IMG/VR virus record: IMGVR_UViG_3300042402_004854
Coordinates: 1 to 64,000 of that record
Source of the DNA: a virus
Taxonomy: Duplodnaviria > Heunggongvirae > Uroviricota > Caudoviricetes
DNA: 64,000 bases
Direction: 5' to 3' (one strand)
Position numbers and translations under genes: made by a program. Of the stretch, positions 4,888-22,741 are shown in pieces. The notes beneath the pieces were generated by a model. It searched no databases and had not been told where the DNA came from. It saw only the letters and a program-made list of their open reading frames with translations. How positions within the stretch are numbered: position 1 is the first letter of the stretch; each line of letters begins with the position of its first letter.

Positions 4888-5852
4888 CATTTTTAGTAAC
4901 AGGCGGCCTAGGCCTTATTGGGCACAACATTGTGCAACGACTACAAGCACGTGAAGAACGGGTTGTGGTAGTGGATACCAAGACCACGTATGGTATTATC
5001 CCACAAGCAGAAATAGACTACTTGATGGCAGAACGTGAAAAAAAGATTGCACCAGACACACCAATCTATCTTTACGACATCACCGATGAGTCAGACATGG
5101 ATTTGCTTATAGGTGAACACCGGCCCCGGGTAATTGTCCACTGTGCAAGTTTTCCCCGACAAAAAGTTGTCAATGCCAACCCTGCGCTGGGTGCAGATGT
5201 CATGATGCGTGGCTTGATCAACTTGCTTGAGAGTGCCAAAAAGTATAAAGTTGAGAGGTTTGTGTACATCAGCAGCAGCATGGTGTACGGAGACTTTGAA
5301 GATGACGTGTTGGAAGATGATGAATGCCGTCCGCAAGGACAGTATGGAATAATGAAACTGTGTGGAGAAGACCTTGTTAAAGATTATAGCCGCCGTTGTG
5401 GTTTTGAGTATGTTATTATCCGCCCCAGTGCTGTATATGGCCCGCTGGACGTCGAAGACCGAGTCGTTGCCAAATTCATGCTCACAGCAATGCGCGGCGG
5501 AGTGCTCCGAGTTAATGGAGCGAACGAAACACTAGACTTTACCTATGTGGATGATGCCGCTGATGGCATTGTTGCTGCCGCAACACGTATCATGTGTCGC
5601 AACATGACATTCAACATTACCAAATCACACAGTGTGAGTCTGCTGGAAGCCGCAGAAATGATTGTGAAGATTGTAGGCAAAGGCACCATCGAAGTGCGTG
5701 ACAAGGATGCAGACTTTCCCAGTCGCGGTGCATTAAATATTGACCGGGCTAGAACCATCTTGGGTTATGACCCCAAAGTAGACGTTGAAGAAGGATTTCA
5801 AAAGTATTATGAGTGGTTAAGTCGATCCACATATTGGAATAAGAATGATTAA
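4884..5852 (+). CDS. NAD-dependent sugar epimerase/dehydratase (extended SDR)
   Basis: N-terminal VTGGLGLIGHNIV (GxxGxxG Rossmann motif). Catalytic YGIMK (YxxxK). 322 aa. Confidence 0.8.
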   Translation: MTFLVTGGLGLIGHNIVQRLQAREERVVVVDTKTTYGIIPQAEIDYLMAEREKKIAPDTPIYLYDITDESDMDLLIGEHRPRVIVHCASFPRQKVVNANPALGADVMMRGLINLLESAKKYKVERFVYISSSMVYGDFEDDVLEDDECRPQGQYGIMKLCGEDLVKDYSRRCGFEYVIIRPSAVYGPLDVEDRVVAKFMLTAMRGGVLRVNGANETLDFTYVDDAADGIVAAATRIMCRNMTFNITKSHSVSLLEAAEMIVKIVGKGTIEVRDKDADFPSRGALNIDRARTILGYDPKVDVEEGFQKYYEWLSRSTYWNKND

Positions 5853-6864: not shown

Positions 6865-7952
6865 CAACTACCGGTCTTACTATCCCGTTTACTGGAATAC
6901 GAAAACAGTATAACAATCTCCGCACTGAGATCTTAGACGTCACAGACACAGTGTTGCGTTCGGGACAACTCATGAACGGCAACTATACCTATGAGTTTGA
7001 GGATTGGTTGGCCAGGCGCAACCGTCAGCCCTATGCTGTGACCTGTCACTCAGGCACCCAAGCACTAGAAATCATTGCTGAGTGGATGTTGTTACAAGCA
7101 GGTCGTCCTGATACGCCCACAGTAGCAGTACCCACGCTGACTTATCCTGCCACACTGAACGCATTTGTACGAGCAGGCTGGAACTTGCACATTGTGGACA
7201 CTGACCGATATGGTGTCATGGACATGACCAAACTTAAACACAGCACAGATATCCAGGCCATTTGTGCTGTGGGTCTGTATGGGCAAGCACTCAACGAAAT
7301 GAAACAAAGTGTGTGGTCCTTGACTCACCCCATCATAGAAGATGGCGCACAACACTGGCTCAGCAACAAATGTCAACGTGTAGGCGATTGTGCTATTAGT
7401 TTTGATCCCACCAAAAATCTAGCCAACTATGGCAATGGTGGTGCCATAATCACTGCCAGTCGCAACTTGATGGAGTTTGCTAGAAACTGGGTCAGCAATG
7501 GCAAACGCACCAACCATGCCGAGCCCGGAACCAACAGTAGAATGAGTGAAACGGATTGTGCGCAGATGTTGGTGAAAACACGCTACATTGATCAGTGGCA
7601 ACAACGCAGACGCACCATTGCTTATCACTGGATAGAAATGTTAAAAAAACATCCAGACGTCACTTGTCTAATTGATGATTCAAATCTTGAAACTCATTGC
7701 TTTCACAAGTTTGTGATCAACGTAGACAATCGAGACATTGTGCAAAGGAACATGTCTTTACGCAAGATTGAAACCCGAGTACATTATGCAACACCCATGC
7801 ATGAGTTGCCAGCATATCAACACTATCCTGCGCCTGACTTGCTCAGTGCCGGTAGTAGTTTAGCACGTAGATGTCTTTCACTTCCTATCTATCCTGAACT
7901 GTCAGACCTGGAAGTTGAATATGTTATTGACTCGTTGTTAGACTGCGTTTGA
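6849..7952 (+). CDS. DegT/DnrJ/EryC1-family PLP-dependent sugar aminotransferase
   Basis: N-terminal YEFEDWLARRNRQPYAVTCHSGTQALEI pattern. SFDPTKNL aligns with the SFHxxK PLP-lysine motif. 367 aa (TTG start at 6849 or ATG at 6861). Confidence 0.75.
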   Translation: MATQMTTTGLTIPFTGIRKQYNNLRTEILDVTDTVLRSGQLMNGNYTYEFEDWLARRNRQPYAVTCHSGTQALEIIAEWMLLQAGRPDTPTVAVPTLTYPATLNAFVRAGWNLHIVDTDRYGVMDMTKLKHSTDIQAICAVGLYGQALNEMKQSVWSLTHPIIEDGAQHWLSNKCQRVGDCAISFDPTKNLANYGNGGAIITASRNLMEFARNWVSNGKRTNHAEPGTNSRMSETDCAQMLVKTRYIDQWQQRRRTIAYHWIEMLKKHPDVTCLIDDSNLETHCFHKFVINVDNRDIVQRNMSLRKIETRVHYATPMHELPAYQHYPAPDLLSAGSSLARRCLSLPIYPELSDLEVEYVIDSLLDCV

Positions 7953-10131
7953 CAAACGCATACGTGGCCAACCAATCCCACTCATAACTTTTCTTCAGCG
8001 CCGCAAAGTCGCCCGCAACTGAGTCATAGTACTCTACTCCATCTTCGGCACCTTTGCGACTCCATTGCCCCGGTGTTGAATCAACAGTGAGCCATTTATT
8101 GAGTCTGTGTTCGCTTTCCACGTCAGGTAAACTGGCTTTTAATTTGAGCACTTCACGGAATGCAGTGCGCCAGCACATCCAGTCCGACTCATGATACATG
8201 GCTGTACCGCACACAATGGGCACAACTTCATGTGGTTGGTCTAGTGTGAAGTCCAAGCCCGCGCCTGTGTTCTCCAACACCAACTGTTTATTATACGCAA
8301 TCATGGCTTGGTGACCGTATACAAGTCCATTGATGGGATTGTGTGCATGAAAAATATAGTGCTTGGGTTGTTGCATGCGATCAGGTTGCCATGTCCAGTC
8401 AAAATCCGCAGTGACTTCTAGTTTGGCAAACACAGCAAAGAACCAAGGTGTTGTGCTTTGTCTAGCAGCCTCTTGATATGCTGCCACACGTCCATTGACA
8501 CCCGACACATGATGTATGCGATTCTTGTGGTCTTGTTCTGCTATGAATTTTAAATGTCTAAAGTAAAAGTCGGCATGTATTTCACCATTGCTGATAAACA
8601 CAATGTCCAAGGGCGGATCTTGTAGAGCACGTTGACTTCGATCTATATAAGGATAATCATACAACTGTGTCCGAATGTAAGGCACAGCGGTGCGTGGTAC
8701 TACAACTGTGCCAGCACCGTCACTGATGGGCACAATGGTTTTGGTTTGTTCACGCCACAGTGGCACAACTGCCATGATACCGGGGACATAATCGTGATTG
8801 GTAAATGTAGCAAGTGGACCTGCCCACTCAGTGTGTTTAATTGCTTCAACTTGACTGTCGTTGCTATGCACAATCACAGGCATGGGTCTACGTGGTACAC
8901 GTACATCAACAAAGTTTACATCATACCATTCCAACAGTTCTTTCTTTTCTGCTCTAGCAGCAAATGAGGGCACATGCATGAAGAATGTGTCACCAAACTT
9001 TTGATTGTTGGATCGAAACACATGCAACATTGTGGCCTGCCATTGTTCAGGATGCCAAGAGAAGTCAAAACCAGTGTAATCACAAATGCTGGAGCAAATC
9101 CAAACAAACTCATGTTGTGAACCTATGCTCTTGGCCAGGCGTATTAGTGTATCTCTATAGTTGTCAAAGTAACGCACAATCTTTGTGGTGTTTGGAATTT
9201 TGCCAGTACTGCCACACAAGTGATCTATTTCATATATGGCTGTGGCATTGCTGTCAACCCGCGCACGTATTTGATCCACGTACTTGATTTCTACAGCGCC
9301 AGGCACTGTATAGGTAGGGCCACCAGTGCGTTGGTGTTGCGTGGCAAACTGATATATGTACGGTGGATCACCTGGATCAGGCTGCCATGAAAAGTCCACA
9401 GTGGACTCATCTACGTTGGCAGGCACCGTCCAAGCAGTACGATCTTCCAGCAGTTCTGCTCTTGGCCAGTTCATGTACTTGCGTTCAGTTGCGCCCGGCA
9501 CATGATATTCTACTGTGGGCATTTTTTCTGCTGGCCACCATTGATTACCAAACACATACATGTAGGGTGGATCTCCTGGATCTGGGCACCAACTGCGATC
9601 CCACACACAGTCTACTAACGTATGCCAACGGTTAGCATGTTTTTCTGGCAGTCTTGCTTGAGGCGTGTCCATGTATTTGGTTTGCGTAGCACCTGGTACA
9701 TGATATTCCACTGTGGGCATTACATTACCCGGCCACCACTGATTGCCAAACACATAGTTGTAAGGCGGGTCATGCGGATGTGGAGCCCAAGACGTATCAA
9801 ACTCCGCAGCTTTTACCAAAAATTTGTAAGGCTTGGCATGTGGCCGATTGGGAATTGTCTGAGCATGAAAATGATAGTTATCTGTTGCACCCGATCTAGG
9901 CACAAGGTACGTGCCTGAATGATCATGCCATTGACTAGGCCATGCATGAGTAAATTCGCTTTGCCAAGGCACTGGTTCCCAAAGAAAATCAAAGCCAGTG
10001 TAATCTGCTAAGTATGTGATCCACCAGAAATATCTTGTGCGACTCAAACTCTGCGCATGTTCAAATGACTCCGCTGACTTTTCGTGTGCAAACACACCAG
10101 GTTTTTTTCCTGAATAAAATACATCAAACAT
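7924..10131 (-). CDS. hypothetical Trp-rich tandem-repeat protein (735 aa); possible glycan-binding or glycosyltransferase-associated function
   Basis: Long uninterrupted frame. Contains three to six copies of a ~45-aa module (D/F)FSWxPxPxDPPYxYxFGNQWWP...TVEYHVPGAxxxKYM. Only - strand gene inside the + strand block. Confidence 0.7.
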   Translation of the reverse strand: MFDVFYSGKKPGVFAHEKSAESFEHAQSLSRTRYFWWITYLADYTGFDFLWEPVPWQSEFTHAWPSQWHDHSGTYLVPRSGATDNYHFHAQTIPNRPHAKPYKFLVKAAEFDTSWAPHPHDPPYNYVFGNQWWPGNVMPTVEYHVPGATQTKYMDTPQARLPEKHANRWHTLVDCVWDRSWCPDPGDPPYMYVFGNQWWPAEKMPTVEYHVPGATERKYMNWPRAELLEDRTAWTVPANVDESTVDFSWQPDPGDPPYIYQFATQHQRTGGPTYTVPGAVEIKYVDQIRARVDSNATAIYEIDHLCGSTGKIPNTTKIVRYFDNYRDTLIRLAKSIGSQHEFVWICSSICDYTGFDFSWHPEQWQATMLHVFRSNNQKFGDTFFMHVPSFAARAEKKELLEWYDVNFVDVRVPRRPMPVIVHSNDSQVEAIKHTEWAGPLATFTNHDYVPGIMAVVPLWREQTKTIVPISDGAGTVVVPRTAVPYIRTQLYDYPYIDRSQRALQDPPLDIVFISNGEIHADFYFRHLKFIAEQDHKNRIHHVSGVNGRVAAYQEAARQSTTPWFFAVFAKLEVTADFDWTWQPDRMQQPKHYIFHAHNPINGLVYGHQAMIAYNKQLVLENTGAGLDFTLDQPHEVVPIVCGTAMYHESDWMCWRTAFREVLKLKASLPDVESEHRLNKWLTVDSTPGQWSRKGAEDGVEYYDSVAGDFAALKKSYEWDWLATYAFVKRSLTTSQ
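9262..9999 (-). repeat. in-frame tandem repeat region encoding W/P/Y-rich ~45-aa modules
   Basis: Protein positions ~45-290 of the 735-aa ORF. Copies DTSWAPHPHDPPYNYVFGNQWWPGNVMPTVEYHVPGATQTKYM, DRSWCPDPGDPPYMYVFGNQWWPAEKMPTVEYHVPGATERKYM and DFSWQPDPGDPPYIYQFATQ...TYTVPGAVEIKYV. DNA copies are diverged; compare 9540-9620 with 9700-9790. Confidence 0.6.
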
Positions 10132-11251
10132 GATTAGAATCGACGAAATTTACAACAATACATTTTGGCCTTGGCTTAAAGAGCATTATCCTGGTGTTAG
10201 AATGTTTTTTTGCGATCCATTTGGGAGAAGTGATCCGGATAGCATATTTAATTATGGCAATGATAAAATACACGAGTACAATTATATATTATTTTTTGAT
10301 CAAGAGCCAATAAATTTGGAAATTCATATACCAACTTTTGATACGGTATACGGAAGTAATCATGACATTTTTTGCATAAAAGACTGTACCTTAAATGGGT
10401 ATATTGTCACCAGTGAAAAAAACAGCGAGATTGTGAATTATATCTGCAAACGTTATAGATGGAAATCGTTGTATTATTTTTTCCATGGATGGGCTGCATT
10501 GGATTGGTATCGTGGATATGACCGAACTTTTTTGATCCAACCCTGGACCGAAAGAACTATTAACAAGACTTTTCTAGCACCCAATCGTATTGTGGCAGGA
10601 GAGCGTGAGCATAGATTAGAAATGCTGTATTGGATATTTCGACTGGGCATGACCGACAATCATGTGTCATGTCCTGCTGTGTGTCCTGCAGAAAATATTG
10701 CTATACTGGATGCTGTGCAACCTCTTAAAAGCAAGTATCCTGATATCGAAACAGTGTTTGCTGAACAGCCATTGCCACTAAACTTTGAGGGAGAAACCGA
10801 TCATCCCATGCATAGTTGTTGGCTCAGTTTGTTTGACCAAGCGGCTGAAAGTTTGTTATACTTGGTTACTGAAACTGTGGCCACAGGACGTAGACACCAT
10901 TTGACTGAAAAAACATTCAAACCCATTGCCTTGGGCATGCCTTTTGTGATGGTGGGCACACAAGGTAGTTTGAAGTATTTGCGCAGTTATGGTTTCCGAA
11001 CATTTGGTGACTTGTGGGATGAAAGTTATGATGACGAGCCAGATGATAGCCGACGCATAGAAAAAATTGCTCAACTATTAAAACAACTTGAAGGCAGTGA
11101 TCGTCAGGCCATATTTGACTCTGCACAAGAAATTATTGAACACAATTGGAATCACTTTTATGGCGGTGGGTTTGAAGCTGTACTGTGGCAAGAACTAAAG
11201 GGCATGCTAAATGAGCTTGAATTTGATAGCGGATCAAGTAGTACGGGGTAA
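10130..11251 (+). CDS. GT10-family (alpha-1,3-fucosyltransferase-like) glycosyltransferase paralogue 1
   Basis: HLTEKTFKPIALGMPFVMVG...GFRTFGDLWDESYD matches the FUT motif ITEKLWRN...PVVLG...FDE. Shares a paralogous C-terminal core with four other ORFs in the window. Confidence 0.6.
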   Translation: MIRIDEIYNNTFWPWLKEHYPGVRMFFCDPFGRSDPDSIFNYGNDKIHEYNYILFFDQEPINLEIHIPTFDTVYGSNHDIFCIKDCTLNGYIVTSEKNSEIVNYICKRYRWKSLYYFFHGWAALDWYRGYDRTFLIQPWTERTINKTFLAPNRIVAGEREHRLEMLYWIFRLGMTDNHVSCPAVCPAENIAILDAVQPLKSKYPDIETVFAEQPLPLNFEGETDHPMHSCWLSLFDQAAESLLYLVTETVATGRRHHLTEKTFKPIALGMPFVMVGTQGSLKYLRSYGFRTFGDLWDESYDDEPDDSRRIEKIAQLLKQLEGSDRQAIFDSAQEIIEHNWNHFYGGGFEAVLWQELKGMLNELEFDSGSSSTG

Positions 11252-12392
11252 AATATATCCTGCGCTGGCACGCCATCAAGCTGCACCTTACACACAGGCA
11301 TGGCGCGAGTTTGGTCAACATTGGCCGCATACCATTCCCATTCGACTACAAGAATATTGTGACCACCATAATATCAAAATCAACATCTATAATGTTCAAG
11401 ATCAGTTGCCCAACAACACATTTTATCCTGTTGGCTTAGGATTTTTTAATTTTGATATTGACTACTTTGAACTCATGAGCAGTGAGATCCGCCAGGCCTT
11501 GTGTGAACAGCGTGTGCGTGTGTTGTTTTACTATCATGAAGGTGACAATCCTGCACGTATCAAACTTCAACTAGACAAATTGGCCAGAAATCATCGATTG
11601 CCAACCGACTGTTATGTGTTTGTCAGTGCCAACACCGCTGCCAAACAGTTAAAGAACTTTGTGTACTTTACAGACTTTGAGATTTGGTATTATCAACGCA
11701 ATCGTGCTAGTCCTGCACTAAAAATACATTCGGAGCCGAGAGAGCGTGAATTTACTGTGCTTAACAGACTGCACAAATCATGGCGTGCATTGGCCATGGC
11801 AGATTTAAAAAGTCTTGAGTTGCTAGATAACTCATATTGGAGTTACTGTGAGTCTGGTGTGTTTGATGATGCAAAGTGCCCGATTGAAATTGATGCTATT
11901 GCCGGACTACGCACTGCTACTGAAGAGTTTTTAAAATCAGCCCCGTACATCAGTGATGAGTTGGATTTTGATCAACGCAATGATCACAGCACACTTGTGC
12001 CCAAGTACCATGTCAACAGTTATTGCAACATTGTGATGGAAACACATTTTGATGCTGATCAAAGTGGAGGTGCATTTTTAACTGAAAAAACATTCAAGCC
12101 TATCAAACACGGACAACTGTTTTTCATAGCGGGACCAGCAGGCAGTTTACAAGTGTTACGTGACTTGGGGTATCGTGTGTTTGATCATATACTGGACAAC
12201 AGTTATGATCTGGAAACTGATCACACACAACGTTGGCGGGCATTGACCCGAGCCATATACTTTGCTCAACCCGAACTGCCCCGACTGTTTGAACAGGCTC
12301 GAGCTGACATAGAACACAACCAACAGTTATTTCAAGCCACAAAGACCGATCGTTTAAATAGTTTGATCAAGGACATCAATGAACACCATTAA
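11211..12392 (+). CDS. GT10-family glycosyltransferase paralogue 2
   Basis: FLTEKTFKPIKHGQLFFIAGPAGSLQVLRDLGYRVFDHILDNSYD; overlaps the previous gene by 41 nt. Confidence 0.6.
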   Translation: MSLNLIADQVVRGKIYPALARHQAAPYTQAWREFGQHWPHTIPIRLQEYCDHHNIKINIYNVQDQLPNNTFYPVGLGFFNFDIDYFELMSSEIRQALCEQRVRVLFYYHEGDNPARIKLQLDKLARNHRLPTDCYVFVSANTAAKQLKNFVYFTDFEIWYYQRNRASPALKIHSEPREREFTVLNRLHKSWRALAMADLKSLELLDNSYWSYCESGVFDDAKCPIEIDAIAGLRTATEEFLKSAPYISDELDFDQRNDHSTLVPKYHVNSYCNIVMETHFDADQSGGAFLTEKTFKPIKHGQLFFIAGPAGSLQVLRDLGYRVFDHILDNSYDLETDHTQRWRALTRAIYFAQPELPRLFEQARADIEHNQQLFQATKTDRLNSLIKDINEHH

Positions 12393-13419
12393 CTCTTATA
12401 CCAGCTGGCAACCACTTGAAGAAGTTATTGTAGGTCGTGCTTACACCCCAGACTATTTTGATTTTATTGAAAATGCTCAAGTGCGCAATCAATTACAACA
12501 GATTCTCTCTGAGACTGAAGAAGACTTGGCCAACTTGCAAAAGACCATTGAGACTTATGGTGCAAAAGTACGCAGGCCCAAGCTACCCGACAAATACAAT
12601 TTTCAACGTGACCAAATGAAGGGCAACGGTGCACCACTGCCACCACTTACCCCAAGGGACTGGCAGATCACCCTGGGAGATAAACTGTTACGTGTGTTGT
12701 CTATTCCAGAATTAGATTCACTGTGCAACGAGTACGAAGCAGCACAACCTGGTAGTGTGATCAATCCACACGGTCCCACAGGCTGGGACGAAAACTGTAT
12801 CCTTAACCAAGCGTCAGCATCATGCATTGTACGTGTGGGACGTGATGTGTTCTTTGACAACTCAGATTTTTTACGTCCTGATCAGACTCGGTGGATCGTG
12901 GATCATGTGCTAGGACCAGAGTATCGCATACATGAAGCCATTACAGACGGTCATGGTGATGCGGTGTTTGCTATATTGAAACCTGGTGTGTTATTGAGTT
13001 CAAAACACGATGTTAACTTAGACTTAGCACGTGACTTTCCGGGATGGGATGTTTGCAAAATTTGGGATAGTAGTATCTGGGCCGCCATGGAAGTTGGCAA
13101 GTTCAAGTATGAACAAAGCCCGAGTGCTTGGTATGTACAAGGACAAACTCCCACACCAGAGTTTACAGACTTTGTGAACACTTATCTAACCAAGTGGACT
13201 GGATTTGTTGCTGAAACTGTGTTTGATGTCAACTGTTTGGTGCTGGATGAGTCACATGTTATCTTCTCAGCATACAACCGAGAAGTGTTTGACTACTGTC
13301 GCAAGCATAAGATTGAACCTATTATCTCAGAACTGCGTCACAGTTATTTCTGGGATGGTGGTATTAGTTGCTGTACGCAAGACATTCGACGCCGTGGCGG
13401 ACTTGAAACTTATCTCTAA
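12379..13419 (+). CDS. amidinotransferase (AGAT/StrB1-like) paralogue 2
   Basis: The C-terminus VLDESHVIFSAYNREVFDYCRKHKIEPIISELRHSYFWDGGISCCTQDIRRRGGLETYL aligns closely with the human AGAT C-terminus VLMLDEKRV...[24 protein letters not shown]. Confidence 0.8.
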   Translation: MNTINSYTSWQPLEEVIVGRAYTPDYFDFIENAQVRNQLQQILSETEEDLANLQKTIETYGAKVRRPKLPDKYNFQRDQMKGNGAPLPPLTPRDWQITLGDKLLRVLSIPELDSLCNEYEAAQPGSVINPHGPTGWDENCILNQASASCIVRVGRDVFFDNSDFLRPDQTRWIVDHVLGPEYRIHEAITDGHGDAVFAILKPGVLLSSKHDVNLDLARDFPGWDVCKIWDSSIWAAMEVGKFKYEQSPSAWYVQGQTPTPEFTDFVNTYLTKWTGFVAETVFDVNCLVLDESHVIFSAYNREVFDYCRKHKIEPIISELRHSYFWDGGISCCTQDIRRRGGLETYL

Positions 13420-14903
13420 CTGAAAACTTTTACACCATACAGTTTTTCAAACCGATCTGCATCTGCTCGATCGTTGACCATGGGCTCGCCACGTATGTTC
13501 AAACTGGTGTTCAGCAACATAGGACAACCAGTTATTGAATGCCAATACTCCAACAACTGTCTTATTCCTGATCCGCCCGCCTCCACCGTTTGTACTCTAC
13601 TGGTGCCATCAACATGACATATAGCAGGGTAAACGTCAGGTTGGCGACAACGAGCGACTGACTGCATATAATTGTGAGTATGCCAGCCAGGCTGCATGTC
13701 AAAGTAGTCATTAGCCAATTCAGCCAGTACCACAGGGGCGAAGGGTCTGAACTTTTGTCTGCGTTTGATTTCATTTACTCTGTCCTTGATTTCTGCACCA
13801 CGGGGGTCTGCAAGTAGGCTTCGGTTACCCAACGCTCTAGGACCGAATTCAGCACGGCCAGAGGCCACTCCAACAATGCCAGTGTCAAGTAGAGTACTGA
13901 CAATACGATCAACAGGATAAGGGCCAGGGATATTGTGACCAAGGTAAGCATTACGCCAATGCAACCTTTTGCCGTACGCAAGGGCAGCGGCTCCGAGGCT
14001 GCTTCCGGCATCGCCGGGGTTGGGCATGATCCAGATGTTTTCAAAGTATTTTCCTAGTCGTCTATTGGCCAAACAGTTGAGTGCAACGCCACCTTGATAC
14101 ACAAGATTTGTTGACCAGCCAAAATCTCTGGCCCGGCGCATGATATTACCAATCAAGCGTTCCAACATTCGTTGAGCAGCAGCGGCAATATCCACATGAT
14201 CAAGACCGCCCATGAAGGTGTCGCTGACTCCAGTGTGTAAGTTCTGTTTGAACTCTGCAGTATTTGGATCACTGATCAACACTGCTTCCATGAGATCATG
14301 ATAATGATCATCGCCATAAGCAGCCATACCCATGGTGATGTATTCTTCGTCTAGTGGGTGTAGGCCCACACGCTTAGTAATTGCACTATAAAAGAGACCC
14401 AGGCTGTGAGGGTATCGTTGTCCCCACAGTCGACGATATCTTGCTCGTCCTTGCTTGTCATACTCTGCTCCCCAGATTGTGATTGTGTCCCATTCACCTA
14501 TGGCATCGATTACCACAACTGTGGCCCGGTCGTATGGTGAAGTTTGAAAGCCACCAGCGGCATGTGAAAGATGATGATTGTAACTGTGATAGTGTTTGAT
14601 ATCCTGCCACCGGGCATGACCTATCTGCTGATGCACTATGCTTTTTACTCGTAACTTGTTCCACTCTATACCTTGGCCAGCATACAGTTGACGCAGTTGC
14701 TTGGCCCAAGGACGCTCATAATGTGCTACAGTATCAATAGGGTTGTAGTTTTCAAGTTCACGTATAAATGCACTGTCAAAGTCAGCGTCATTTTTGCGTT
14801 TGCTGTAGCGTTCTGCATGGCCGGCAAATAATATGTCGCCAGAGCGATTGATCACTGTGGCCGCGGCATCATGGAACCCAGCACTGATACCTAGTATGTT
14901 CAT
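13416..14903 (-). CDS. NodU/CmcH/TobZ-family O-carbamoyltransferase
   Basis: N-terminal MNILGISAGFHDAAATVI (Kae1/HypF-like carbamoyltransferase N-domain). C-terminal NTSLNIRGEPMVNDRADA motif. 495 aa. Confidence 0.85.
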   Translation of the reverse strand: MNILGISAGFHDAAATVINRSGDILFAGHAERYSKRKNDADFDSAFIRELENYNPIDTVAHYERPWAKQLRQLYAGQGIEWNKLRVKSIVHQQIGHARWQDIKHYHSYNHHLSHAAGGFQTSPYDRATVVVIDAIGEWDTITIWGAEYDKQGRARYRRLWGQRYPHSLGLFYSAITKRVGLHPLDEEYITMGMAAYGDDHYHDLMEAVLISDPNTAEFKQNLHTGVSDTFMGGLDHVDIAAAAQRMLERLIGNIMRRARDFGWSTNLVYQGGVALNCLANRRLGKYFENIWIMPNPGDAGSSLGAAALAYGKRLHWRNAYLGHNIPGPYPVDRIVSTLLDTGIVGVASGRAEFGPRALGNRSLLADPRGAEIKDRVNEIKRRQKFRPFAPVVLAELANDYFDMQPGWHTHNYMQSVARCRQPDVYPAICHVDGTSRVQTVEAGGSGIRQLLEYWHSITGCPMLLNTSLNIRGEPMVNDRADADRFEKLYGVKVFS

Positions 14904-15004
14904 TTGTAGATGAATGGGTCTCGTTTGCGAAGTTCTTTTAGTTTTTTACGATAGCGTATTTCCAGGATAATTTGATCGTATATTTTTTTCAACCATTTAA
15001 ACAT
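14900..15004 (-). CDS. conserved 34-aa small ORF (MFKWLKKIYDQIILEIRYRKKLKELRKRDPFIYK), translationally coupled upstream of carbamoyltransferase
   Basis: ATG at 15004, preceded by AAGGA 7 nt upstream. The TGA overlaps the carbamoyltransferase ATG (ATGA). Paralogue of 15683..15784 with conservative substitutions. Confidence 0.55.
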   Translation of the reverse strand: MFKWLKKIYDQIILEIRYRKKLKELRKRDPFIYK

Positions 15005-15686
15005 AATTTTTCCTTAAGACGTAAGTTACCAACCCACCGTTTTTAAAATTGAACAGTGCTGGCAACCAAAAATTTTGTAACATACTAGGGTAGGCTTTTT
15101 TGAGTTCAAAATCAGGTAGCATCGATTTAATCTTATCAAAGGTAAAACTCAACTCGAACGGATGTAATTCTTGATCTTGATACAATGTATGGCTATTGTA
15201 GTTTATTTTAAATACTTTTTTTAGTATTTTTCCTGCAGGATGATAAAGCCCTAAAATTATAGTACCACCTGGACGTGTCAGTTCACGTAGCTTTGTTATC
15301 ACTGTCATGTAGTCAGGAATATGGTGTAAAACACCTTGGCATACAACCACATCAAACGTTTCTGCAAGATTGAGTTGAGTTAAATCTTGCCGGTTGAATT
15401 CTACGTTGTTAATGTTGTGTTGTTTTTTAAATTGTTTCGCATAGTCAACTGAGTTTGAAAAATCCACGCCCATAAATTTTGATTGTGGATGTCTCAGCGC
15501 CATTAAATTTGTTATCAATCCGGTACCACAGCCAGCATCCAATACTGATTGATTGTTGTCAATTTGTGATTCGATAATGCGCAGATATCGGTTTTCAATT
15601 GGATGTCCGTACGCCAACAATTGCTCTATACTGTAAGGTCCTGGGAACGGAACCTCATTGTAAAACTCTTTGACTGTTTGTTTCAT
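14997..15686 (-). CDS. class I SAM-dependent methyltransferase
   Basis: VLDAGCGTGLITNLMA (motif I, GxGxG). 229 aa. Confidence 0.8.
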   Translation of the reverse strand: MKQTVKEFYNEVPFPGPYSIEQLLAYGHPIENRYLRIIESQIDNNQSVLDAGCGTGLITNLMALRHPQSKFMGVDFSNSVDYAKQFKKQHNINNVEFNRQDLTQLNLAETFDVVVCQGVLHHIPDYMTVITKLRELTRPGGTIILGLYHPAGKILKKVFKINYNSHTLYQDQELHPFELSFTFDKIKSMLPDFELKKAYPSMLQNFWLPALFNFKNGGLVTYVLRKNYV

Positions 15687-15784
15687 TTATAAAGGTAGGG
15701 ATCTTGTTTTGCTAATTCTCTTAGATGTTTTCTATACCGTATTTCTAGGGCGATTCGATTCCAAAGTCTGCGTATCCATTTCAT
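15683..15784 (-). CDS. conserved 33-aa small ORF (MKWIRRLWNRIALEIRYRKHLRELAKQDPYLYK), translationally coupled upstream of methyltransferase
   Basis: The ATG at 15784 overlaps the stop of 15781..16806 (ATGA). AAGGAG 6 nt upstream. The TGA overlaps the methyltransferase ATG. Paralogue of 14900..15004. Confidence 0.55.
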   Translation of the reverse strand: MKWIRRLWNRIALEIRYRKHLRELAKQDPYLYK

Positions 15785-16806
15785 CGTAGTCTCCTTATTT
15801 GTTGATCGGCATAATCTTGATCGCTCCAACAATACTCATATGTAGCTTCGGCGTCACTGGTGCGTATTTTATACACATCTAAATGAGTGCTAAGTTGATT
15901 CCAAATTTGATTATAATCTAACGTGCCAAAACTTTTATTCAAATTAACCTGTGCCACTTGAGGGTGGCCAATTGTTAACAATTTATCTTCTGGATCAAAT
16001 TCATTATCAATTAACCATTGTCGAAAATTTGCAATTTGTTTTTTTTGCCAAAAAAACGCCCCAGGATCTCTAGCCCATTCAATATCAAAATCACCAGCAG
16101 CCTCAGTTTGATTACGTAAACCAGTTGTCACTAGTTCATCTACACTGCGCCCTTCGTCGTTAAACACTTCCCAGTGCGTTTTTCCCACAGCCTTATTTAT
16201 TCCCACGTAAACTCCGCCCATTTGACGATTTAATGTTTCAACCCCAAACAGTTTGTAATCCTCTGTGTCTAATAGAAATCTTGGCGACTTGAGCCAACAC
16301 ATGAGTTGACTGGGTCTACGCCATTCGGGCGCTTGTATGACCTTGCGCATGCTGAGCACAAGACTTTCGTATTCATGGCACAACAAGTTGAGTTGACGTA
16401 TATGCCAGCGTGTTCGATCGTCTGCCTTGGTCCAATAAGGACTCATATGTCCTGAATGTCCTTGCAGATCTTCAAAGTAGCGATGTAGCCAGTTCATGCG
16501 GTCATGGTCAACATCTAAATTGTCCTGTATGGTGCCTTCTACAGTGAAATGATCTTGTATTACATAACCCAGGTTGGCTGAGTTAATAGCGGCAATGCTG
16601 GCATTGATCTGATTGACGATGTATTCGGCATTGCGTTCACTTTCAGTCCAGCCCAACCAGCAGTAGTTTTTTTCTAAATGCAAGTCGTTGCGTATGATGT
16701 CATTCAATGCACTCAACCATTTGCGACTGAGACTGTTGTCTGTGACATCAATGTGCAGTGTGAGCGTGTCTGCACCACGCAGGTCTATTTCGATTCTATC
16801 AAGCAA
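15781..16806 (-). CDS. hypothetical protein (341 aa; TTG start as drawn)
   Basis: ORF track; long frame in the co-directional block. No motif recognised. The start codon is uncertain: TTG at 16806 overlaps the stop of the upstream rSAM gene. Confidence 0.55.
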   Translation of the reverse strand: MLDRIEIDLRGADTLTLHIDVTDNSLSRKWLSALNDIIRNDLHLEKNYCWLGWTESERNAEYIVNQINASIAAINSANLGYVIQDHFTVEGTIQDNLDVDHDRMNWLHRYFEDLQGHSGHMSPYWTKADDRTRWHIRQLNLLCHEYESLVLSMRKVIQAPEWRRPSQLMCWLKSPRFLLDTEDYKLFGVETLNRQMGGVYVGINKAVGKTHWEVFNDEGRSVDELVTTGLRNQTEAAGDFDIEWARDPGAFFWQKKQIANFRQWLIDNEFDPEDKLLTIGHPQVAQVNLNKSFGTLDYNQIWNQLSTHLDVYKIRTSDAEATYEYCWSDQDYADQQIRRLR

Positions 16807-18076
16807 TGTTGTTCCACCATTCTAGCACCGCGGGACGACCAGCCAGTATTTCAGCCATGGTGATCGGTTGTGTGCGTATACTTTCTAATTGTAACACACG
16901 TGCCTTGCCTTTTGCAATGCCTTTGGAGTACTGATCCGGCCATTGCTCAGCAAATGTGGGCCGTTGTTTTAGTTGTAATAACACATCACGTAGCGCACCG
17001 TCCACTTGTGGCACAAGTTCATCGATCCACGGATCTAGCAATGACCTGGGCATGGACAAGGGACTCATCACAATGTCTGGTGAGAACGAGAACATTACTT
17101 TAGCAAGGACTTCGACTCCGAATTCCTGGGCAAGTTGTCTAATGTGTGTAACTTCGAACATTCCGGGCAGAGTGAGCGTAAAGTCAATTCGTACTTGACG
17201 TCTGTTACGTTGGATCTCAACTGCTTGACCAAAATGCTCAAGCCACTGATCATACTCAAGGCCTGTTCTAATGTATTCACCAATTGCGCCCGTGCCGTCG
17301 AGACTTGCACATATCTGCCAATCGCGCAGCCCGCTGAGAATATCGCGATATAAGTTAACACCTCGATAATCCACTCTGGATAAATTTGTATTGTATCTAG
17401 CATATACCTTTGGCCCGTCCCCTAATTCAACTATGCGTCGCATATAACGCCAATGTTGTTCGTACATCAAGGGCTCGCCACCTACCCAGTATACTTCTTC
17501 AACACGATGCTGTTCTACTGCTTCGGCAAACTCAGCCTCGATCTGACTGTCCTGAAATGCTGAGATATCTCGACGCACTTCAGGACGCATCCAGGTGTTC
17601 TTGGGATTGGACCAGTCAACCATGTTGTGTTGTTTCTGTTCGGTTTCCCAACTACTACTCAGCATGTCACCACATGTACGACATTTGAAATTGCACAGGT
17701 TGGAGAATCTATAATCCCAACTCACCGGCTGCATTGTGGTGTAGCCTGCTGTATCAGTGGTTTCCCAGATGTCAGGATACTTATGTTTGAACAACTGCCA
17801 AAAATATGTGCGGTAAACATTAGTGTTCAGCAGTTTGTCATTGCACACTTCGCACTCAGGTAGAGTTTCTCCAGCCATCATTCTACTGCGCACACTCCGC
17901 ATGTGCGGCGAGTTCCAGTGTTGTTCCAGTGTGATGGGAATGTATCGACCAGTGCCTGCGGCTGTGTCTATGTACTGCTCAAAGTTCTGTGCAGGTTCAC
18001 GACTCGCACAACACATGCGCCGTTCTGTTTGTGGACTCAAATAGGTATGCACCCAAGGTGCCATGCATAGGCTCAT
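16799..18076 (-). CDS. radical SAM enzyme, Cys/Trp-rich N-terminal extension (family member 1)
   Basis: CNFKCRTCGDMLSSSW (CxxxCxxC then SSxW). N-terminal CMAPWVHTYL...CC...CEVC. Confidence 0.75.
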   Translation of the reverse strand: MSLCMAPWVHTYLSPQTERRMCCASREPAQNFEQYIDTAAGTGRYIPITLEQHWNSPHMRSVRSRMMAGETLPECEVCNDKLLNTNVYRTYFWQLFKHKYPDIWETTDTAGYTTMQPVSWDYRFSNLCNFKCRTCGDMLSSSWETEQKQHNMVDWSNPKNTWMRPEVRRDISAFQDSQIEAEFAEAVEQHRVEEVYWVGGEPLMYEQHWRYMRRIVELGDGPKVYARYNTNLSRVDYRGVNLYRDILSGLRDWQICASLDGTGAIGEYIRTGLEYDQWLEHFGQAVEIQRNRRQVRIDFTLTLPGMFEVTHIRQLAQEFGVEVLAKVMFSFSPDIVMSPLSMPRSLLDPWIDELVPQVDGALRDVLLQLKQRPTFAEQWPDQYSKGIAKGKARVLQLESIRTQPITMAEILAGRPAVLEWWNNIA

Positions 18077-19008
18077 GACTTTTCTGCATAATGTAAAATA
18101 GGCTCCACAATCTGTTTTAAAATTTGATTAATTACAAATTCACGATTGTAAAAATGATCTCGATTGTGTTGCAATCGACGCAAAGTTTCTGCGTCATGGT
18201 CTTTTATAATTATTTCAGATAATATTTTAATTACAGCATCGCGACGTTGGTCTACATCCACAATTTCGTCGTAGCTTTCATCCCACAAATTATCAAATGT
18301 TTCAAAACCCCATGATTTTAGTGTTCGTAATACACCACGATTTCCATATATTATTAATGGATGTTGGAATGCCAGAGGCTTCATGGTTTTTTCTGTAATG
18401 AATATAGGTGTGTATTTGCTCAGTGGACACACAACAGTCTCTACCACCATGCTGCAATACGTCTGATCATACCATTCAGGATCGAAGCGCCTCTGTGTAT
18501 TCCAATCAGTCATATCTCCATCATTAGGAAGTTGGCGGCCTGTACCAACATAACTCCACATCATGTTTTTTAGTAAATGCTGCACAGACTTTACAAACTC
18601 AGTTCTGTGCGGTCTTAATAGGTTCATGGGCATCAGCGCCTGATATACAGGCCTGTACTGTGGTTGGTATCGATCATATTCAAGGTGTTGATACCAGAGA
18701 CTTTCATTATACCAAAACCAAGAATCGCAATGCACTTGGTGCGTATTTGGTATAAGATCTAATATGGCTTCCCATAATGTGTCTATAATAACACGAAACC
18801 CACGATCTACTAACTCTTCCACGGTAACAGGCAACACATTGTTATAGTTAGGAAAGTCTAAACAATTTAAATAAAACCCAGTTCCCGGGTCATATGTACG
18901 TGATGGATCCCAGGGCTCAAATTCTAAATATTGATCAAAAATAGGACGTAACCAATCGCTACCAAATGAACTTATGGGTTTGGCATGTACTATTTTGAAT
19001 CGTTTCAT
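18073..19008 (-). CDS. GT10-family glycosyltransferase paralogue 3
   Basis: SMVVETV...FITEKTMKPLAFQHPLIIYGNRGVLRTLKSWGFETFDNLWDESYDEI. Confidence 0.6.
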   Translation of the reverse strand: MKRFKIVHAKPISSFGSDWLRPIFDQYLEFEPWDPSRTYDPGTGFYLNCLDFPNYNNVLPVTVEELVDRGFRVIIDTLWEAILDLIPNTHQVHCDSWFWYNESLWYQHLEYDRYQPQYRPVYQALMPMNLLRPHRTEFVKSVQHLLKNMMWSYVGTGRQLPNDGDMTDWNTQRRFDPEWYDQTYCSMVVETVVCPLSKYTPIFITEKTMKPLAFQHPLIIYGNRGVLRTLKSWGFETFDNLWDESYDEIVDVDQRRDAVIKILSEIIIKDHDAETLRRLQHNRDHFYNREFVINQILKQIVEPILHYAEKS

Positions 19009-19009
19009 G

Positions 19010-20233
19010 TTAGTTTTGGAAATAGTAATTAATCAGTGAGGCCATTTCTGGAGATACTGCTCTAAAATCTGTTGATCGCTTGCGATCTAAATCTGCAGTT
19101 TTCATGCGCAACATAAATCCATCTGTACTTGCACCACGATTCATAAAGTCAATGATGCGATCAAATTCCTCACGATACTGCGGTGGTATATCTGCTGAAC
19201 GCAAGTATTCTGTAATACCAGTTTTGGCAGTGTCTGGCAATGTGGCTATTGAAAAGTGCCAAGGATCATGCATCATATTCCAGTATACAAAATTAAAACT
19301 TTCTTTGTTTTGGTCAATCCATTGTGCCACTTGATCTAGATAACGTACATTGAACACGTTTACTGTGGTACAAATTTGGAGAACTATATTGCTGTGACAT
19401 TCTTTGAGGTCTCTAAAACGATCTAAATTTGTGCAGACTTCTTGCCAGTCTGCATTGGTGCGTTGATATTCAAATCTCTCACCAATATCATCAATGCTAA
19501 ATGCAATTTCAACAGTTTTAAAATGGCGCCAAATTGCTTCACCACGTTCAGGCCAGTGTGTGCCATTGGTATTGTAGTGTATTTCAACTTGGTGCGCAAT
19601 ACCGCAATCAACAATGCCTTGCAACATGTCAAAGTGTTCGTCAATCATGAATGGTTCACCGCCAGTGAATTCAATATAGCGTATATCTGTTAATACTGTG
19701 TTAATTTCATCCCAGAATTTTTTATTCTCTCTAGGCCATGCGCCGGCTCGAAGCATGAAGTAATGATAATTGTTCTTTTTATCTACGTCCCGGGGCAGTG
19801 CATTTAGTTCTTCTGTGGCGTATTGACTGCTCGACCATGACCCGCAGATACGGCATTTTAAATTACAGATGTTGCCTAGTTTCAAATCCAAAAACATTAG
19901 CGGTTTGGCGTCTGCTGTCCACTCCTGATCAGGTACTATGTGTTTGAGTCTGTTTAACGTGTGCATGCGTTTGCTGGTACGACCTGAACGTTCCTCACTC
20001 CAACAACGCCTACATGTTTGCGGTTTTTCGCCGGCCAAGAACTTTTCTCGTAACTGTCGCATGTGGTTGCTGTTTTGTACATCAATAAACGATGCTGTAG
20101 AGAGTTCAAACTTTTCGCCATTGTTATTTAATATTTCATCATCAGCAAGACAACACGGTCGCACAGTACCAATAGGACTGGCTTCAAGGCTGACCCAGGG
20201 CAGTACACAAAATTTATCATGTGGAATATTCAT
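19010..20233 (-). CDS. radical SAM enzyme, Cys/Trp-rich N-terminal extension (family member 2)
   Basis: CNLKCRICGSWSSSQY. N-terminal FCVLPWVSLEASPIGTVRPCC...CRRCW. Confidence 0.75.
   Translation of the reverse strand: MNIPHDKFCVLPWVSLEASPIGTVRPCCLADDEILNNNGEKFELSTASFIDVQNSNHMRQLREKFLAGEKPQTCRRCWSEERSGRTSKRMHTLNRLKHIVPDQEWTADAKPLMFLDLKLGNICNLKCRICGSWSSSQYATEELNALPRDVDKKNNYHYFMLRAGAWPRENKKFWDEINTVLTDIRYIEFTGGEPFMIDEHFDMLQGIVDCGIAHQVEIHYNTNGTHWPERGEAIWRHFKTVEIAFSIDDIGERFEYQRTNADWQEVCTNLDRFRDLKECHSNIVLQICTTVNVFNVRYLDQVAQWIDQNKESFNFVYWNMMHDPWHFSIATLPDTAKTGITEYLRSADIPPQYREEFDRIIDFMNRGASTDGFMLRMKTADLDRKRSTDFRAVSPEMASLINYYFQN
20202..20233 (-). repeat. 32-bp direct repeat copy 1 (covers start codon and first 9 codons of rSAM member 2)
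   Basis: agtacacaaaatttatcatgtggaatattcat is 31/32 identical to 20950-20981. Confidence 0.8.
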
Positions 20234-20949: not shown

Positions 20950-20981
20950 AGTACGCAAAATTTATCATGTGGAATATTCAT
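20950..20981 (-). repeat. 32-bp direct repeat copy 2 (encodes orphan MNIPHDKFCV fragment then stops)
   Basis: agtacgcaaaatttatcatgtggaatattcat. Its ATG overlaps the TAA of the B12-rSAM gene (TAATG), exactly as copy 1 abuts the stop of 20230..20925. Confidence 0.8.
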
Positions 20982-22741
20982 TAACAATCCAGTAACATTG
21001 TTTTTAATTCAAGATATTTGTCATTATCAAATTGTATATCATCATTTATGTTTGCATGCATGTTTGTAATTTTTTCAATCAGCGTTGGGTTAGCCATGAG
21101 ATGTGCATGTATCAACGTTTGTATTTCCACGGGCATCAATACGGGCTCTGTTCCCAATAACCCATAATGATCAGGGTAAACCTTGATGGCTAATGGTGTG
21201 CCAAAAAAATTGTCTATGTCTGAACGATGTAATCGTAGACTGTCTATCAATTGATTGAGTTCAGGAGTGTTTCTACTCATGGGCAGTCTCAACGCTGTGG
21301 CCACTTCTTGTAAAATCAGTCTGCGACGACACCTTTCAAAAAATGTCAATTCTGGATTGGTTTCTAATAGCCAGAGTATGTCTGATCCTCGACCAAAATT
21401 CAACCCAATTTGTTCTTGCATGTTCCACAGCGGGGTCTGTGGATGATGAGTGTATGGAGTTCCCAGAGTAATTTTGTACACTGTACCTGATGCACAATAT
21501 TGTTGATATCGTACAAACATGTTCACGGTGTCTAAAAAATCCGCCCAGGTTTCTGTGGGATAACAACTAAAAAATAGCAACACACAAACAATACCACGAC
21601 GATCAAATTCTGCTAGTTCATGATCAATATCTGCTGTAGTAAATTGTTTTTTCATGTGATCACGAACTGCATCACTACCGCTTTCCACACCAATAGTTAA
21701 CCCTTCTCCGCCGCTGAGTTTGAGCAGGTCATAGTATTCATCGTTGAGCACGTTTGATCTAGATCTAGTGATGTATTGCCCTACCCATTTGATAGCACTG
21801 TCTGGGTTGGCAGTGTTGTGCTGAGCCAATGTTGAAATAAAATTTTGAAATGCTGTCAAGCTACCATTCACCAAGCTGTCGCTCATGTAAAATTTTTTAA
21901 CACCATGGCGATGATACAAATGAATCATTTCCCGTGCAATATGGTCACCTGATCTAAATTTAAATTTAGGCCACAGCACTGGTATATCACAAAACGTACA
22001 TTTACGAACACAACCTTTACTGCCAGTGATGGGAATTATAGGTTCGTTTACATAATTATATTCTGTTAATTCGTAGTCATCAAAATCTACAAATGGTATT
22101 GCTTCAATGTCAATTTTTTCAACACTACCAGTTATACTGGATTCGGTTGATCCCGACAACAAATCTACAATAGCTTGCTCTCCATCGCCTTGTATAATTG
22201 AATCTACTACTTGATAAAACAACAATGTCTCGCTGAAATTTTTGTGAGGGTATGACCCAAAAAAACTTTTCATTTTATTGACAAATCGCCTGTGATCAGG
22301 GCCTAATGCATAACTACTGGCTCCTCGACCACCTAATACAATACGAATATCAGGCAATAGTCGTTGCACTTCTAAACACAAAGCCAAAGTGGCTTTGTGA
22401 CTTTTATAACTAAACACACTGATCCCTAGCCAACGTGGATTTTTTTCAGCAATTAGTTTGATGCTGATATCCAGCCATTGACGTATTAACTCTAAATCAT
22501 TGTCAAAAAATGCCAGCACAGGATCTATGGTATCATTTACATGTGTGCTTACGTTTTCAAAATTGTATTGTACTTGAAAAAATCGGTCGTTAGTTTTACA
22601 AATCTTTTTCAGTTCTAAATTTAAGTCAAGAGTGTTTGCAGTAAATCCTGCTGCAATTGCACAGCTTTTAATTACAGCAGGACTACTGGGTGGATATTGT
22701 AAGTCCAGCACAGGAACTGAGACTACTAATAAATCTAGCAT
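20981..22741 (-). CDS. large radical SAM enzyme, probable B12-binding (class B) type, paralogue A
   Basis: 586 aa. CVRKCTFCDIPVLW (CxxxCxxC) about 230 aa from the N-terminus. The N-terminal ~200 aa is consistent with a cobalamin-binding domain preceding the rSAM core. Paralogous to 27803..29620. Confidence 0.6.
   Translation of the reverse strand: MLDLLVVSVPVLDLQYPPSSPAVIKSCAIAAGFTANTLDLNLELKKICKTNDRFFQVQYNFENVSTHVNDTIDPVLAFFDNDLELIRQWLDISIKLIAEKNPRWLGISVFSYKSHKATLALCLEVQRLLPDIRIVLGGRGASSYALGPDHRRFVNKMKSFFGSYPHKNFSETLLFYQVVDSIIQGDGEQAIVDLLSGSTESSITGSVEKIDIEAIPFVDFDDYELTEYNYVNEPIIPITGSKGCVRKCTFCDIPVLWPKFKFRSGDHIAREMIHLYHRHGVKKFYMSDSLVNGSLTAFQNFISTLAQHNTANPDSAIKWVGQYITRSRSNVLNDEYYDLLKLSGGEGLTIGVESGSDAVRDHMKKQFTTADIDHELAEFDRRGIVCVLLFFSCYPTETWADFLDTVNMFVRYQQYCASGTVYKITLGTPYTHHPQTPLWNMQEQIGLNFGRGSDILWLLETNPELTFFERCRRRLILQEVATALRLPMSRNTPELNQLIDSLRLHRSDIDNFFGTPLAIKVYPDHYGLLGTEPVLMPVEIQTLIHAHLMANPTLIEKITNMHANINDDIQFDNDKYLELKTMLLDC

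Follow-up and report, generated by a model that had tools for sequence, protein, structure and literature searches.

This study asked whether two very small open reading frames (ORFs) lying between the transferase genes of a tailed phage encode functional proteins and, if so, what such peptides contribute to their operon. The locus belongs to a 64,000-nt stretch of viral DNA (Caudoviricetes; IMG/VR record IMGVR_UViG_3300042402_004854, positions 1 to 64,000; hereafter the window), whose minus strand carries, in order, a gene for a protein that we call U, the small ORF pepB, an S-adenosylmethionine (SAM)-dependent methyltransferase gene, the small ORF pepA, and a carbamoyltransferase gene. Sequence comparisons supported pepA and pepB as a genuine pair of paralogues that are translated into small proteins and kept by purifying selection. 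With somewhat less than even confidence, we read the peptide as a trans-acting helical accessory or adaptor of a carbamoyltransferase-centred tailoring pathway, analogous to a small protein of bacterial clusters; its ORF may double as a translational coupler.

Two paralogous small ORFs in the window

An initial annotation, made from the nucleotide sequence only, had placed two small ORFs at 14900-15784, and both were recovered there on the minus strand (Table 1). BLASTP aligned pepA and pepB with 18 of 33 residues identical (55%), 88% positives, and an E-value of 3e-14, and MAFFT gave an identity of 58%, in agreement with the approximately 60% originally estimated. A six-frame tblastn search of the whole window recovered only these two peptides (reciprocal E about 5e-12); the next-best matches had E>0.2, and no third copy was found in the 64 kb. 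Both peptides are basic, with K or R at 10-12 of their 33-34 residues and a net charge of +7 to +9. The core of pepA (LEIRYRKKLKELRKRDPFIYK) showed no difference from the family consensus.

The AAGGA(G) Shine-Dalgarno (SD) sites described for the two ORFs were each found 6 nt 5' of the ATG. An ATGA stop/start overlap had been proposed for every junction; this was correct for U/pepB, pepB/methyltransferase, and pepA/carbamoyltransferase, but not for methyltransferase/pepA, where the two genes overlap by 8 nt (ATGTTTAA). The claimed synonymous bias in the DNA of the pair did not hold: 11 codons were identical, 8 differed synonymously, and 14 differed nonsynonymously, with 10, 9, and 15 nucleotide differences at codon positions 1, 2, and 3, respectively.

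Selection acts on the encoded peptide

Among 77 unique coding sequences (CDSs) of the family, the entropy at codon positions 1, 2, and 3 was 0.52, 0.32, and 1.13. Pairwise comparison of the 21-codon core revealed 25,811 synonymous and 3,460 nonsynonymous codon differences, and core residues were encoded by several codons (Pro29 by four, Leu24 by five, and Arg27 by six). Because these CDSs had been selected by peptide similarity, the test was repeated on loci fetched by the U protein alone, which yielded entropies of 0.50, 0.36, and 1.01. Nei-Gojobori estimates of nonsynonymous (pN) and synonymous (pS) divergence, taken over 41 unique canonical loci, were 0.036 and 0.68 for the peptide core (codons 13-33), 0.42 and 0.76 for the last 100 codons of U, and 0.32 and 0.79 for codons 11-110 of the carbamoyltransferase. 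The peptide core changes about tenfold more slowly than the flanking enzymes, its silent sites are near saturation, and the identity of K versus R is strictly kept in its basic stretch. The purifying selection that the initial annotation had read from pepA and pepB was borne out in the wider family by this comparison of related phages, of the dN/dS type that it had suggested, though not by the pair itself.

We also considered whether the ORF might have no functional product, being either a mere short coupling ORF or a conserved RNA or DNA element that happens to be open. The ORF lies exactly between stop/start overlaps and carries an SD site, and peptide copies flank inserted genes like direct repeats. 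However, amino acids are kept while nucleotides vary, the 40-nt flanks are 35-40% identical compared with 74% within the CDS, and Rfam contained no match. Conservation of a nucleotide motif only would point to such an element; the opposite was observed, with the frame conserved in more than 150 phage loci and nearly every codon varying synonymously. As far as sequence analysis allows, this codon-level conservation refutes the notion of a non-functional ORF and excludes an RNA or DNA element, and we regard both as extremely improbable.

The predicted structure is simple. The AlphaFold2 (AF2) monomer model was a single helix spanning residues 3-28, followed by the DPFIYK end, with a mean predicted local distance difference test (pLDDT) score of 84. 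The RYRKKLKELRKR stretch is polybasic, and a C-terminal DPFIY(K) hook ends the peptide. The N-terminal 16 residues are amphipathic, with a hydrophobic moment of 0.58-0.71 that was reached by 3-6% of shuffles; the amphipathicity of the whole helix was no higher than that of shuffled controls.

A widespread phage family outside curated libraries

The family consensus, of 33-34 aa, is MNWIKNLYNRIxLEIRYRKKLKELRKRDPFIYK, and DP[FY][IL]Y is invariant across the family. The peptide is carried by phage contigs of 4-374 kb; the phages are of the T4-like and jumbo types, and metagenomes are their main source. A search of a 5.8-billion-protein collection, in which a 49-aa TTG-extended ORF was the first alignment row of the query, returned 5,954 clusters at 90% identity, all labelled hypothetical and none with a Pfam domain. 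One exact peptide sequence was shared by 591 contigs, which measured up to 350 kb. When 1.84 billion representatives were searched exhaustively with HMMER, 161 clusters at 50% identity were obtained; nearly all of their representatives were 27-100 aa long with the motif at the very C-terminus, and the rare longer ones were mis-called starts or frameshifted joins. No fused homologue was found among the 161, which speaks against the earlier suggestion of fission remnants with counterparts fused to transferase N-termini.

A pattern scan of IMG/VR, seeded with pepA, pepB, and the relatives from phages RsoM2USA and AG-345-D19, confirmed at least 273 relatives, and a 33-34-aa ORF of the consensus type was present in all 80 retained loci, whereas tblastn with pepA against 50,697 phage records gave no match at E<=10 with this short query and the low-complexity filter on. 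The two relatives used as seeds were spotted by reading the ORFs beside the closest phage carbamoyltransferase matches: MIQKLVNWLKSFFVKEKTEAEKIRDQIRKQDPFIYK, unannotated, in the Ralstonia jumbo phage RsoM2USA, and …MFNKLIQKFRNWQKMRKLRKSDPYIYEE in Marine virus AG-345-D19. The RsoM2USA member, a 36-aa peptide ending in …IRKQDPFIYK (positions 5026-5136 of locus L001, corresponding to MG752970.1 complement(125891..126001)), lies between the paralogous SGNH-like genes RsoM2USA_201 and _200, with the carbamoyltransferase gene two genes downstream. RsoM2USA was the only cultured phage found with a relative.

Neither pepA, pepB, nor the family consensus matched any family in Pfam-A, PHROGs v4, or NCBIfam 20 at E<=1. 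The searchable literature contained nothing on the string DPFIYK or on DUF5989, a bacterial family compared below, and papers on T4-like environmental phages mention islands rich in radical SAM (rSAM) genes but not the peptide. The family has no precedent in any curated library or in the searchable literature. It marks an annotation blind spot, comprising approximately 6,000 clusters that are more conserved than the adjoining enzymes yet lack a Pfam, PHROGs, or NCBIfam model. A cellular origin was rejected: genomes representing 185,579 species of bacteria and archaea contained only six matches, all on contigs of metagenome-assembled genomes carrying the same cassette.

The peptide marks a large tailoring cassette

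We clustered all ORFs from 88 loci (L001-L088) and the window, and the resulting synteny map of 89 sources revealed a near-fixed order of N-terminal-twitch rSAM genes, U, the peptide, and a NodU/SxtI-type carbamoyltransferase gene. In 87 sources, rSAM genes, usually two to four tandem paralogues (NF033640), lay no more than 5 kb from the peptide; the carbamoyltransferase gene was present in 85, no more than two genes downstream of the peptide; and U was present in 82. When 78 loci were selected via U alone, the peptide was found on the same strand in 77, and the one peptide-less locus ended 34 bases past U. The gene directly after the peptide encoded a carbamoyltransferase in 42 cases, an SGNH protein in 36, the SAM synthetase MetK in three, a methyltransferase in one, and another protein in one. 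A gene for an SGNH/GDSL-like hydrolase was often inserted before the peptide, after it, or both, and the rarer inserts beside the peptide encoded MetK, a methyltransferase, or a protein of no known family. Located 3' of the carbamoyltransferase gene were a family with a TEKTxKP motif, an adenylylsulfate (APS)-kinase-like protein, and more uncharacterised families. The peptide is a marker of a large phage cassette combining multiple rSAM enzymes, the 341-aa U, and a carbamoyltransferase, the product of which probably alters phage or host surface glycans.

U, the invariant upstream neighbour, had no relative in Pfam, PDB, PHROGs, or NCBIfam and no match in deposited phage genomes. Its AF2 model, built from homologues at least 81% identical to the U of the window, had a pLDDT of 58 and was too poor for a fold search. 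The conserved C-terminus of U, …QQIRRL(K/R), encodes the SD site of the peptide.

In three loci (L030, L054, and L062; positions of about 5102-6205), a full MetK gene is coupled to the peptide. Near it are a gene resembling S-adenosylhomocysteine/methylthioadenosine nucleosidases and a DUF59/PaaD-like Fe-S assembly gene, a set that looks like phage-encoded support of radical SAM chemistry.

The strict linkage bears on a target outside the cassette. The peptide could be a trans-acting small protein, either an arginine/lysine-rich binder of RNA or DNA or a membrane-active cationic helix aimed at a host component, and be only co-expressed with the tailoring genes. Its net charge accords with this role, the strong SD site implies a high copy number, and a core more conserved than any adjoining enzyme suggests a target that is itself more conserved than phage proteins. 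Nevertheless, hundreds of contigs strictly retain the gene at its place in one particular operon, and the peptide is absent from every other context, including the rest of the 64-kb window, which together indicate a function tied to the cassette pathway. We consider an outside target improbable.

The neighbouring rSAM genes raise another alternative, namely a precursor peptide. PqqA with PqqE, and MftA with MftC and the glycosyltransferase MftF, are rSAM-modified precursor peptides of cofactors, and the mycofactocin product is further glycosylated and methylated. The phage peptide could similarly be a substrate or scaffold of the adjacent rSAM enzymes, resembling the precursor of a cofactor or of a peptide that is ribosomally synthesized and modified post-translationally (RiPP); its invariant C-terminal DPFIYK (Tyr32, Lys33) would be cross-linked or modified and then decorated by carbamoyl-, methyl-, acyl-, and glycosyl-transfer enzymes. 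Similar to PqqA and MftA (…GVY), it is short, has an invariant Tyr near the C-terminus, and is encoded beside rSAM genes of the SPASM/twitch type, although the adjacency in 87 of 89 sources is by itself no proof that the peptide is a substrate. The two known peptides come from highly expressed precursor genes, and the phage peptide gene has the strongest SD site of its operon, as is common in precursor genes. MetK, a source of SAM, sometimes follows the peptide directly, and one good copy per genome suffices.

Unlike such precursors, the phage peptide is polybasic and conserved over its full length, basic helix included, rather than divided into a conserved leader and a separate core. An RRE (RiPP recognition element)/PqqD domain, a peptidase, and a dedicated oxidase were not detected in the phage cassette. 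The rSAM proteins and 19 homologues of U were scanned against Pfam and NCBIfam, which identified no PqqD/RRE, peptidase, or transporter family, although U, with its poor model, may contain a cryptic RRE, and the synteny map placed no conserved peptidase or exporter in the core cassette. The same island contains sugar-nucleotide enzymes, sugars are the usual substrates of NodU-type carbamoyltransferases and SGNH enzymes, and the divergent RsoM2USA and AG-345-D19 members adjoin SGNH and carbamoyltransferase genes. On balance, a precursor role is unlikely. The complete scheme, in which the peptide is the ribosomal starting material of an rSAM-dependent product, with DPFIYK modified by the N-terminal-twitch paralogues and then carbamoylated, methylated, acylated, or glycosylated, is slightly more doubtful still. 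If true, T4-like and jumbo phages would have their first widespread pathway of a RiPP-like or cofactor-like kind, with U as a novel sort of partner that handles peptides.

Translation signals and coupling

The peptide has the strongest ribosome-binding site of the operon. The mean duplex energy with the anti-SD sequence was -6.3 kcal/mol at the peptide start, with 86% of starts at or below -5, compared with -2.3 kcal/mol (0%) for the gene that begins on the stop of the peptide and -2.15 kcal/mol (15%) for all long ORFs of the loci. The SD site is retained whatever gene precedes, being encoded within …QQIRRLK of U or …LMQEKF of the SGNH gene. Of 77 sequences, 76 have AAA as the final sense codon and 70 have TGA as the stop, producing AAATGA with the next start. 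An ATGA overlap was present at 76 of 84 junctions between the peptide and the next gene, independent of the kind of gene that follows. From these signals, we infer that ribosomes, on completing the peptide, go on to translate the gene downstream. Neither sigma-70-like promoters nor the T4 late-promoter motif were enriched, and terminator-like sites were in slight excess only (13 found versus 7.7 ± 3.1 expected from shuffles).

Short ORFs in compact phage operons that serve coupling have the same three features, namely a strong SD site, a short length, and an ATGA overlap feeding a downstream cistron without its own SD site. Pure couplers, however, are unconstrained in amino acids, whereas the phage peptide is approximately 10 times more constrained than the neighbouring enzymes.

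SpeFL (34 aa) and TnaC (24 aa) are ribosome-arresting leader peptides, and the phage peptide could have a cis-acting role of this type: the nascent 33-residue chain, approximately one exit-tunnel length, would contact the ribosome at its stop codon and so gate termination-reinitiation at the overlapping start of the next gene, which lacks an SD site, possibly in response to a metabolite. The phage peptide is of similar length, is conserved toward the C-terminus at a fixed distance from the stop, and lies directly upstream of a gene that it could control. Its length is fixed, conservation peaks in the final 21 residues ahead of the stop, approximately 90% of loci have the ATGA overlap whichever gene follows, and a strong SD site is never on the downstream gene. 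The K-versus-R conservation would fit a universal target such as rRNA. Start/stop overlaps are nevertheless a common feature of these operons in general (754 ORFs included 122 ATGA junctions), and the downstream genes are of several unrelated kinds. Two layouts, U-peptide-SGNH-carbamoyltransferase and U-SGNH-peptide-SGNH-carbamoyltransferase, express the carbamoyltransferase without the peptide directly upstream. The amphipathic N-terminal half and the conserved Trp3 are more typical of a folded or docked helix, and the peptide matches nothing in Pfam, PHROGs, or NCBIfam. Loci with two peptide copies provided a further comparison.

The extra copy diverges in sequence but keeps its SD site and overlaps

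Two copies were found in the window, L078, and L105, and all three loci are ordered U, diverged copy, inserted gene, canonical copy. In the window, pepA is the canonical copy and pepB a diverging duplicate, with changes K20H, K22R, R25A, R27Q, F30Y, and I31L, all affecting residues for which conservation is otherwise 90-100%. In L078, a variable N-terminus is common to both copies and therefore indicates a recent duplication; the U-proximal copy has five core changes. L105 was the only other contig recovered in a search for cassettes of the methyltransferase type. Its U is 82% and its methyltransferase 61% identical to those of the window, and the 22-residue core of the canonical copy is identical in the two, whereas the diverged, U-proximal copies share only 45% identity. 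The L105 cassette (positions 5023-5908; IMGVR_UViG_3300023174_000045) has the layout U, peptide, methyltransferase, peptide, and its canonical copy is followed by a 114-aa ORF, the carbamoyltransferase gene not being directly next.

The extra copy retains its ORF, length, SD site, and both overlaps but not its sequence. This pattern fits a sequence-specific function that is needed once per genome and hence acts in trans, together with a coupling role in cis that does not depend on the sequence. It argues against an arrest peptide, which is expected to be constrained in every copy: in all three loci, one copy has lost invariant residues of the supposed arrest core and kept the ORF, SD site, and overlaps. 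That each inserted gene has its own upstream copy remains in favour of a leader peptide, which we nonetheless judge quite improbable, a little more so than an outside target. The pairing of a canonical with a drifting copy provides a natural separation of the sequence-specific role of the peptide from its role as a coupler.

A proposed accessory peptide analogous to SxtK/DUF5989

The saxitoxin gene cluster contains the order sxtI-sxtJ-sxtK-sxtL, in which sxtI is assigned to carbamoylation, sxtK is 165 bp long, and sxtL encodes a GDSL-like protein (PMC2679770). From its operon position and size, we infer that the bacterial family DUF5989 (PF19451) is SxtK; a DUF5989 consensus sequence matched PF19451 at 97 bits, and the order carbamoyltransferase, SxtJ, DUF5989 was seen amid glycosyltransferase genes in four bacterial loci (L089-L092). 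The bacterial carbamoyltransferase is 31% identical to that of the window (E=4e-77). SxtK/DUF5989 and the phage peptide are both very small proteins linked to a NodU/SxtI-family O-carbamoyltransferase in glycan or tailoring clusters, and both modules include a GDSL/SGNH-type hydrolase. In DUF5989, an L-K-D-L-W…RKK segment lies at the N-terminus and a PFIY motif close to the C-terminus, and the phage peptide is built likewise. In the literature, the role of SxtK is only a proposal, namely that it acts "in conjunction with" the carbamoyltransferase.

We suggest that the peptide is a small trans-acting subunit, an accessory or adaptor, of carbamoyltransferase-centred tailoring machinery, in which the invariant charged stretch and the DPFIYK end may form a docking surface. 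It would be the functional analogue of the 50-aa SxtK/DUF5989, the companion of SxtI-type carbamoyltransferases and a GDSL-type hydrolase in bacteria. By overlapping the next start, which lacks an SD site, the peptide's stop would deliver ribosomes onward through termination-reinitiation coupling. In the window, the methyltransferase gene may have been inserted along with a second peptide copy, the sequence-specific function staying with pepA and pepB drifting, retained mainly as the coupler of the methyltransferase gene. Of the roles raised in the initial annotation, enzyme partner subunit, scaffold or carrier peptide, and co-translational regulator are possible.

Several observations weigh against the accessory reading. 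Cyanophage carbamoyltransferases approximately 30% identical to that of the window occur without the peptide, which therefore is no general requirement of the enzyme, and the varied downstream gene speaks against a one-to-one subunit. Because the function of SxtK is itself only proposed, the analogy yields no proven mechanism. Membership in DUF5989 was rejected: hhalign, comparing a 121-sequence peptide alignment (119 representatives with pepA and pepB) with 120 DUF5989 members, aligned only the five PFIY columns, with a probability of 22% in local and 0.6% in global mode. DUF5989 members have a central hydrophobic, transmembrane segment (…WLLPIILVLLLLGALIVL…) where the phage peptides have the charged LKELRKRD; DUF5989 is encoded downstream of the carbamoyltransferase, whereas the phage peptide is encoded upstream; and phmmer found no SxtJ in the phage loci (best E-value, 1.1). 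The strict K-versus-R conservation of the basic stretch would equally fit RNA or ribosome binding.

Consistent with the hhalign result, hmmscan assigned neither peptide to any family at E<=1, PF19451 included, and no DUF5989-like protein was among the 150 best matches of the exhaustive HMMER search. The lengths also differ (33 aa for the phage peptide and 50 aa for DUF5989/SxtK). The phage peptide is an analogue of DUF5989 and no demonstrable member. A general companion of phage carbamoyltransferases was likewise rejected, the peptide being absent from C48C1, S-CAM8, Sf-FS3, and AG-345-L05. The SxtK/DUF5989 parallel nevertheless ties the phage peptide to the wider question of the role of tiny proteins beside SxtI-type carbamoyltransferases. 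Lacking a transmembrane segment, the phage peptide is probably soluble and may lend itself to study more readily than its membrane-bound bacterial counterpart.

A further echo of the saxitoxin cluster is an APS-kinase-like P-loop protein of ~144 aa, encoded after the carbamoyltransferase in 22 loci (L005-L012 and others), which recalls sxtO (adenylylsulfate kinase).

Other features of the window

Table 1. Positions of the two peptide genes, their ribosome-binding sites, and further features of the window.
Feature	Position	Strand	Description
pepA	14900..15004	-	34 aa, MFKWLKKIYDQIILEIRYRKKLKELRKRDPFIYK; canonical copy
pepB	15683..15784	-	33 aa, MKWIRRLWNRIALEIRYRKHLRELAKQDPYLYK; diverged duplicate; ATGA overlap at each end
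SD site of pepA	15011..15015	-	AAGGA; 6 nt 5' of ATG; within final methyltransferase codons
SD site of pepB	15791..15796	-	AAGGAG; 6 nt 5' of ATG; within QQIRRLR C-terminal codons of U
U	15781..16806	-	341 aa; invariant upstream neighbour of peptide; about 5,169 homologue clusters
Class I SAM-dependent methyltransferase	14997..15686	-	229 aa; between peptide copies; no SD site of its own; start on pepB stop
NodU/CmcH-type carbamoyltransferase	13416..14903	-	495 aa; canonical downstream partner; no SD site of its own; start on pepA stop
N-terminal-twitch rSAM enzyme (NF033640)	16799..18076	-	first of the tandem rSAM genes preceding U
Second N-terminal-twitch rSAM paralogue	19010..20233	-	
Further N-terminal-twitch rSAM copies	22735-23997, 23978-25441, 26401-27801	-	
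B12-binding rSAM gene	20981-22741	-	
TEKT family paralogues	10130-11251, 11211-12392	+	
TEKT family paralogues	18073-19008, 25314-26417, 29622-30587	-	
346-aa family	12379-13419		
735-aa repeat protein	7924-10131	-	three internal repeats
Shorter paralogue of the 735-aa protein	31487-32413	-	
4,843-aa ORF	41370-55901	-	immediately 3' of the baseplate genes
Baseplate wedge and hub genes	55901-59335, 61223-62722		

Five N-terminal-twitch rSAM paralogues and one B12-binding rSAM gene are clustered within 11 kb of the window. The sugar-nucleotide enzymes of the island comprise the product of a short-chain epimerase/dehydratase-like gene and the 346-aa family. The TEKT family is represented by five paralogues and was found in 54 of the 89 sources; its members have 310-390 aa, the motif (L/I)TEKT(F/M)KP…G, and no Pfam match, and they may constitute a novel glycosyltransferase-like family.

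The 735-aa protein contains three internal repeats of SW.PDP.DPPY.Y.FGNQWWP…PTVEYHVPGA and has no family match; the family to which it and its shorter paralogue belong occurs in 27 loci. The source of the window is a T4-like myophage, and baseplate wedge and hub genes are present. The 4,843-aa ORF beside these genes probably encodes a giant fibre or virion protein, and the tailoring island lies downstream of this ORF on the same strand.

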